Part shown: positions 22,341-22,371 of the stretch, piece after piece
Layout: every line of letters begins with the position of its first letter
How positions within the stretch are numbered: the stretch's first letter is position 1
Assembly (NCBI RefSeq): GCF_016026235.1
Contig: NZ_CP065613.1
Source: Escherichia coli
GTDB lineage: Bacteria > Pseudomonadota > Gammaproteobacteria > Enterobacterales > Enterobacteriaceae
Length of the DNA stretch: 64,000 nt
Direction: 5' to 3' (one strand)
Translations under genes and position numbers: made by a program
Notes under the pieces: generated by a model
The model's input: the letters and a program-made list of their open reading frames with translations, nothing else
Databases searched by the model: none
Told to the model about the DNA's origin: nothing

Positions 22341-22371
22341 TTGACCTTCCCGTAAGGGGAAGGACTATGCT
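22341..22371 (+). promoter_or_regulatory. MerR-type (CueR) promoter of cueO: -35 TTGACC, 19-bp spacer containing dyad CCTTCCC-GTAA-GGGGAAGG, -10 TATGCT
   Basis: Perfect dyad placed between -35 and -10 with 19-bp spacing characteristic of MerR-family promoters, 46 bp upstream of cueO ATG. Confidence 0.6.

Follow-up and report, generated by a model that had tools for sequence, protein, structure and literature searches.

The segment at positions 22341-22371 of the 64,000-nucleotide stretch of Escherichia coli DNA analysed here (the window) is almost certainly the promoter of cueO in a chromosome of the Escherichia/Shigella type, with an embedded CueR operator that acts by the CueR/Cu(I) mechanism. 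Judged from its sequence, this promoter-operator is a known element that is unchanged from E. coli K-12, and inspection of the sequence yielded no evidence against a CueR operator. The segment reads directly as TTGACC TTCCCGTAAGGGGAAGGAC TATGCT and belongs to the following set of features:

21904-22251, minus strand: yacC (K-12 b0122), the divergent neighbour, matched by NF037975 with 197 bits
22341-22346, plus strand: −35 hexamer TTGACC of PcueO, read from the sequence and the same as the −35 hexamer of K-12 PcopA
22345-22363, strand-neutral: CueR operator (CueR box), a CCTTCC-N7-GGAAGG core extended to a perfect 7-5-7 dyad
22347-22365, plus strand: 19-bp spacer ttcccgtaaggggaaggac, read from the sequence, its length kept in 67 of 68 cueO orthologues
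22366-22371, plus strand: −10 hexamer TATGCT, read from the sequence and located 2 bp past the CueR box, as in PcopA (PMC8169799)
22378-22416, plus strand: predicted 5' UTR, its start near 22378 being deduced from the spacing to the −10 hexamer
22417-23967, plus strand: cueO (K-12 b0123), coding for a 516-aa periplasmic multicopper oxidase, the gene controlled by the promoter

A repeat finder located the two arms of the dyad, CCTTCCC (22345-22351) and GGGAAGG (22357-22363), which are 7 nt long each, 100% complementary and separated by 5 nt (GTAAG), with A22354 at the centre. The dyad shares its first two bases with the end of the −35 hexamer and stops 2 bp short of the −10 hexamer. A pattern search of the 64-kb window for the CueR core CCTTCC-N7-GGAAGG matched at 22345-22363 with 0 mismatches, and the two σ70 hexamers are 19 bp apart, as required of a CueR-dependent promoter of the MerR type. 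The initial annotation had described TTGACC and TATGCT at a distance of 19 bp enclosing a perfect inverted repeat, and both the sequence and the repeat finder bear this out. The perfection of the dyad likewise holds; its division into CCTTCCC-GTAA-GGGGAAGG (7/4/8), by contrast, is asymmetric and has to be replaced by the true 7-5-7 symmetry. Nor is the dyad confined to the spacer, as had been stated, since 2 bp of it belong to the −35 hexamer. These corrections to the parsing of the dyad and to its position relative to the −35 hexamer are cosmetic, and the observation stands.

The ATG of cueO at 22417 lies 46 bp downstream of the −10 hexamer and is preceded by the Shine-Dalgarno sequence AAGGAA (22405-22410). 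The predicted product starts with the twin-arginine signal MQRRDFLK, and the ORF matches the NCBIfam equivalog NF008205 (multicopper oxidase CueO) end to end with 983 bits (cutoff, 525). By virtue of this equivalog match, the gene under the promoter is a copper-homeostasis gene. At a few sites the CueO residues differ from those of K-12, an example being GEK in place of what we take to be GGK in K-12. A literature search returned nothing usable on a mapped cueO transcription start, and in a full-text search no paper matched the exact 19-mer.

Comparison with the experimentally characterised cueO (yacK) promoter of K-12, which had been proposed as a check of the assignment, revealed no difference within the element; the whole intergenic sequence and the flanking genes are the same. 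Positions 22240-22430 of the window, a stretch of 191 bp that includes the yacC-cueO intergenic region, match E. coli K-12 MG1655 with 100% identity. We thus agree that the site was already known, as it is the same element as the K-12 cueO promoter. Beyond the element, the locus differs from that of K-12 by a prophage in yacH about 6.8 kb upstream. Of 5426 complete E. coli genomes, 5415 contain the 31-mer promoter, and identity is at least 99% in 5414 records; the remaining 11 of the 5426 genomes lack an exact match of 28 bp or longer. The 166-bp intergenic region was at least 99% identical in 5366 of 5431 records, compared to only 1517 of 5431 for a 500-bp query that included coding sequence. 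The non-coding stretch is therefore more constrained than the neighbouring genes. Ten of the places matched by the 166-bp query are on plasmids. A gene for CueR itself was absent from the 64-kb window (tblastn with K-12 CueR as query, best E = 1.2); in K-12, cueR is located about 377 kb away from cueO.

The second promoter proposed for comparison, that of copA, a structurally characterised target of CueR, led to the same assignment. The K-12 copA-cueR region contains a single match to the box pattern, 48 bp upstream of copA, and the K-12 PcopA sequence was read as TTGACC TTCCCCTTGCTGGAAGGTT TAACCT. PcopA and PcueO share the −35 hexamer TTGACC, the CCTTCC/GGAAGG half-sites and the 19-bp spacer, and in both promoters the core box overlaps the −35 hexamer by 2 bp and stops 2 bp before the −10 hexamer. 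They differ in the central 7 bp (CCTTGCT in PcopA, CGTAAGG in PcueO), in the −10 hexamer (TAACCT versus TATGCT) and in the extent of the repeat, as the PcueO dyad has 7-bp arms while the PcopA repeat extends outward (A...T). The outward extension explains why an overlap of 3 bp with the −35 hexamer is given for PcopA (PMC8169799). The CueR core motif has been defined as CCTTCC-N7-GGAAGG, with a 19-bp spacer and a distance of 2 bp from the box to the −10 hexamer in wild-type PcopA (PMC8169799), and core motif, spacer length and distance all hold at PcueO. Hence, the placement of a CueR operator in the cueO promoter is supported by the identity to K-12, the CueO equivalog downstream, the match to the CueR core and the register shared with PcopA.

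A dyad placed between σ70 hexamers at a suboptimal distance of 19-20 bp, and activation by DNA distortion (PMC9909328), are also features of other MerR-type promoters, such as PmerT of Tn21/Tn501, zntA (ZntR) and soxS (SoxR). In contrast to PcueO, the latter promoters carry other half-site sequences, which specify another regulator and another effector. We consider it very unlikely that a MerR-family regulator other than CueR, such as ZntR, SoxR or a paralogue resembling GolS, is the main user of the operator. To our knowledge, GolS is absent from E. coli K-12. The spacer architecture of 19-20 bp is common to MerR-family promoters (PMC8169799; PMC9909328), and in Salmonella the CueR paralogue GolS has overlapping targets (PMC2919089), both of which would be compatible with another regulator. 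The half-sites, however, are exactly those of the CueR core (PMC8169799) and of PcopA, and it is PcopA and PcueO that are named as the CueR targets in E. coli (PMC9396075).

As a homodimer of the MerR family, CueR activates copA and cueO (PMC5329002; PMC9909328). [quoted passage not shown] A dimer of CueR, the MerR-family Cu(I) sensor, would be encoded elsewhere, act in trans and bind CCTTCC-N7-GGAAGG on the face opposite polymerase. In its apo form, CueR would keep the DNA in a repressed shape. When loaded with Cu(I), Ag(I) or Au(I), it would kink and undertwist the centre of the dyad, so that the spacer is shortened and re-phased and σ70 can contact both hexamers. The periplasmic Cu(I) oxidase gene cueO would then be transcribed together with copA. 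The CueR site was reportedly footprinted by Outten in 2000 and by Yamamoto and Ishihama in 2005. The mechanism follows published work on CueR: distortion by Cu(I)-CueR produces the −35 to −10 distance of a 17-bp promoter and allows recognition by σ70 (PMC8169799, cryo-EM; PMC9909328), and a PcueO-lacZ fusion is metal-inducible under CueR, in a study that identifies PcopA and PcueO as CueR target promoters in E. coli and also covers a PcueO deletion (PMC9396075). Likewise, the Salmonella orthologue cuiD is regulated by CueR (PMC2919089). The site would accordingly account for the switching-on of cueO by copper, and the strain keeps an intact promoter of the Cue regulon; the value of the assignment lies in correct annotation, and it advances no open question.

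Conservation of the element was examined in cueO orthologues that were collected without reference to their promoters. A search of 100,044 species genomes with a DNA pattern for the codons of ATG-NNN-RRDFLKY gave 120 loci, 68 of which encode CueO orthologues with 60-98% amino acid identity. They represent about 20 enterobacterial genera, including Escherichia, Citrobacter, Salmonella, Enterobacter, Lelliottia, Leclercia, Kosakonia, Phytobacter, Pseudescherichia, Atlantibacter, Siccibacter, Buttiauxella, Cedecea, Superficieibacter, Silvania, Tenebrionibacter and Morganella. TTGAC(C/G)-19 bp-TAnnCT with the box in register was found 56-92 bp before the ATG in all but one of these orthologues (67 of 68). 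In the 62 unique promoters, each position of the 31 bp carries 1.64 bits of information on average; the corresponding means are 0.44 for the 40 upstream and 0.55 for the 25 downstream base pairs. In a MAFFT profile, identity to the window amounted to 0.84 in the promoter, 0.43 in the 5' UTR and 0.89 in the Shine-Dalgarno block. Among the unique promoters, the −35 hexamer shows no variation at positions 1-5 and almost always has C at position 6, while T1, A2, C5 and T6 of the −10 hexamer are invariant across the orthologues. This cross-genus footprint illustrates selection on the 31-bp promoter-operator unit and on the 19-bp spacing.

Two kinds of variation were observed within the dyad. At arm position 5, paired changes occurred, from C/G to G/C in four unique promoters and to A/T in one, as expected for a site that is read symmetrically by a dimer. 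Of the 62 unique promoters, 44 have GGAGGG in place of GGAAGG as the promoter-proximal arm; in these, the equivalent of A22361 is G and the left arm does not compensate. The perfect dyad is a minority state, nearly confined among the sampled genomes to Escherichia and some Citrobacter. It is conceivable, if rather improbable, that the GGAGGG asymmetry could set a lineage-specific balance between repression of cueO by apo-CueR and its activation by holo-CueR. On that reading, the E. coli site would be an unusually tight variant and not a typical one.

It is extremely unlikely that the inverted repeat, in place of binding a protein, serves as a hairpin in RNA (terminator or attenuator) or as a cruciform in DNA. 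In the predicted fold, the arms can pair to a G+C-rich stem of 7 bp, but the folding energy is unexceptional (z = −1.16; 27 of 200 shuffled sequences fold as well), and no Rfam family matched at E ≤ 1. The repeat is not followed by a T-run, and a terminator scan made no call. Moreover, no co-oriented gene ends at the dyad, yacC being divergent, so that no transcript running in the same direction is known to extend into the repeat, which is itself located upstream of the predicted transcription start. The uncompensated GGAGGG right arm of most genera, which places a G opposite T, speaks against a stem and would be tolerable in a protein half-site. The RNA-structure or terminator reading was rejected on the basis of the z value, the lack of an Rfam match and of a T-run, and the divergent neighbour.

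Given the base composition of the window, 0.0045 copies of the exact core CCTTCC-N7-GGAAGG would be expected in 64 kb, as against the one observed. For the full architecture, in which a hexamer with no more than one mismatch to TTGACA is followed after 19 bp by TAnnnT and the 7-5-7 dyad is perfect and in register, the expectation over both strands is about 0.0004; exactly one instance is present. That the dyad is a chance palindrome which binds no regulator in an ordinary constitutive σ70 promoter has a practically negligible probability: perfect 7-5-7 inverted repeats of any sequence do occur 17 times in the window, but an exact motif expected at most 0.0045 times, its equality with the published CueR core (PMC8169799) and the PcopA half-sites, and its conservation in register between diverging flanks in nearly all orthologues exclude this on statistics and conservation, and a 19-bp spacer would make a poor constitutive promoter. 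When up to three mismatches to the box pattern were allowed, four matches were obtained in the 64-kb window versus 1.8 expected, the exact box being unique. Candidates for further CueR boxes at 23432, 54434 and 55220 were discarded, as each has 2-3 mismatches and they occur at chance frequency. A standard σ70 scan with spacers of 16-18 bp found no promoter anywhere in 21800-24300; PcueO escaped it because its spacer of 19 bp lies outside this range.

The only cueO orthologue without the operator is that of Intestinirhabdus alba. At 3097-3363 of the locus (L121), just upstream of its Shine-Dalgarno sequence, lies a MITE-like element about 265 bp long whose terminal inverted repeats measure 25 nt, and further repeats precede this element. 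The 12.5-kb I. alba cueO locus contains no CueR box with up to two mismatches. A second natural loss of the operator is seen on the E. coli plasmid pTBE6_2_blaCTX-M-55 (NZ_CP154402.1; L122, 2685-8049), where cueO and a gcd fragment lie between two ISVsa5 transposase genes. The plasmid is homologous to the window only from 22368 onwards, a position within the −10 hexamer, and the −35 hexamer and the CueR box are therefore lost there.

Upstream of PcueO, a second block conserved across genera (AACGTTAGCAC...GGCGACGACCATTATT) was noted at 22279-22320 with an identity of about 0.9 in the MAFFT profile. It may represent the promoter or 5' UTR of yacC on the minus strand, which has AATAAT there, or else, for PcueO, a UP-like element rich in A/T. 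At 22279-22320, the σ70 scan made no call.

The ipaH-carrying lambdoid prophage in yacH (window position 15526) is more unusual than the cueO site. Synteny with K-12 is broken at 15525/15526, inside yacH, and the window to the left of 15526 is not collinear with K-12. The following genes are located in this part:

1441-4512: lambdoid tail tape measure
6887-10384: lambdoid tail TipJ
10454-11053: Lom-like
11075-12529: tail fibre
13283-15046, minus strand: IpaH-family type III secretion effector (E3 ubiquitin ligase), 562 bits

With CAGCTTTTTAT at its end, a segment similar to the lambda attP arm (about 15370-15520) is joined to the middle of yacH. In E. coli FDAARGOS_943, the same prophage end as in the window adjoins ybhB/bioA. 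The junction between prophage and yacH seen in the window was found in none of the 5426 complete E. coli genomes. Taken together, the ipaH prophage content, the location in FDAARGOS_943 and the unmatched junction suggest a Shigella/EIEC-like genome in which an ipaH-carrying lambdoid prophage has integrated at a secondary site in yacH.

Further differences from K-12 were recorded elsewhere in the window. Positions 35218-42638, in the region of the yad fimbrial operon, gave no megablast match to K-12 149614-157293, with both flanks at about 98% identity. The annotation of the yad region in FDAARGOS_943 comprises fimbrial subunits, usher and chaperone, and 35218-42638 seems to hold a divergent yad operon allele. 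Two small differences in structure were also seen. Near rpnC-panC, the window has an indel or overlap relative to K-12 at 33171-33275, and identity is only 92% over 33275-35218. Between fhuB and hemL, about 33 bp (58790-58823) take the place of about 156 bp in K-12 (173445-173601).
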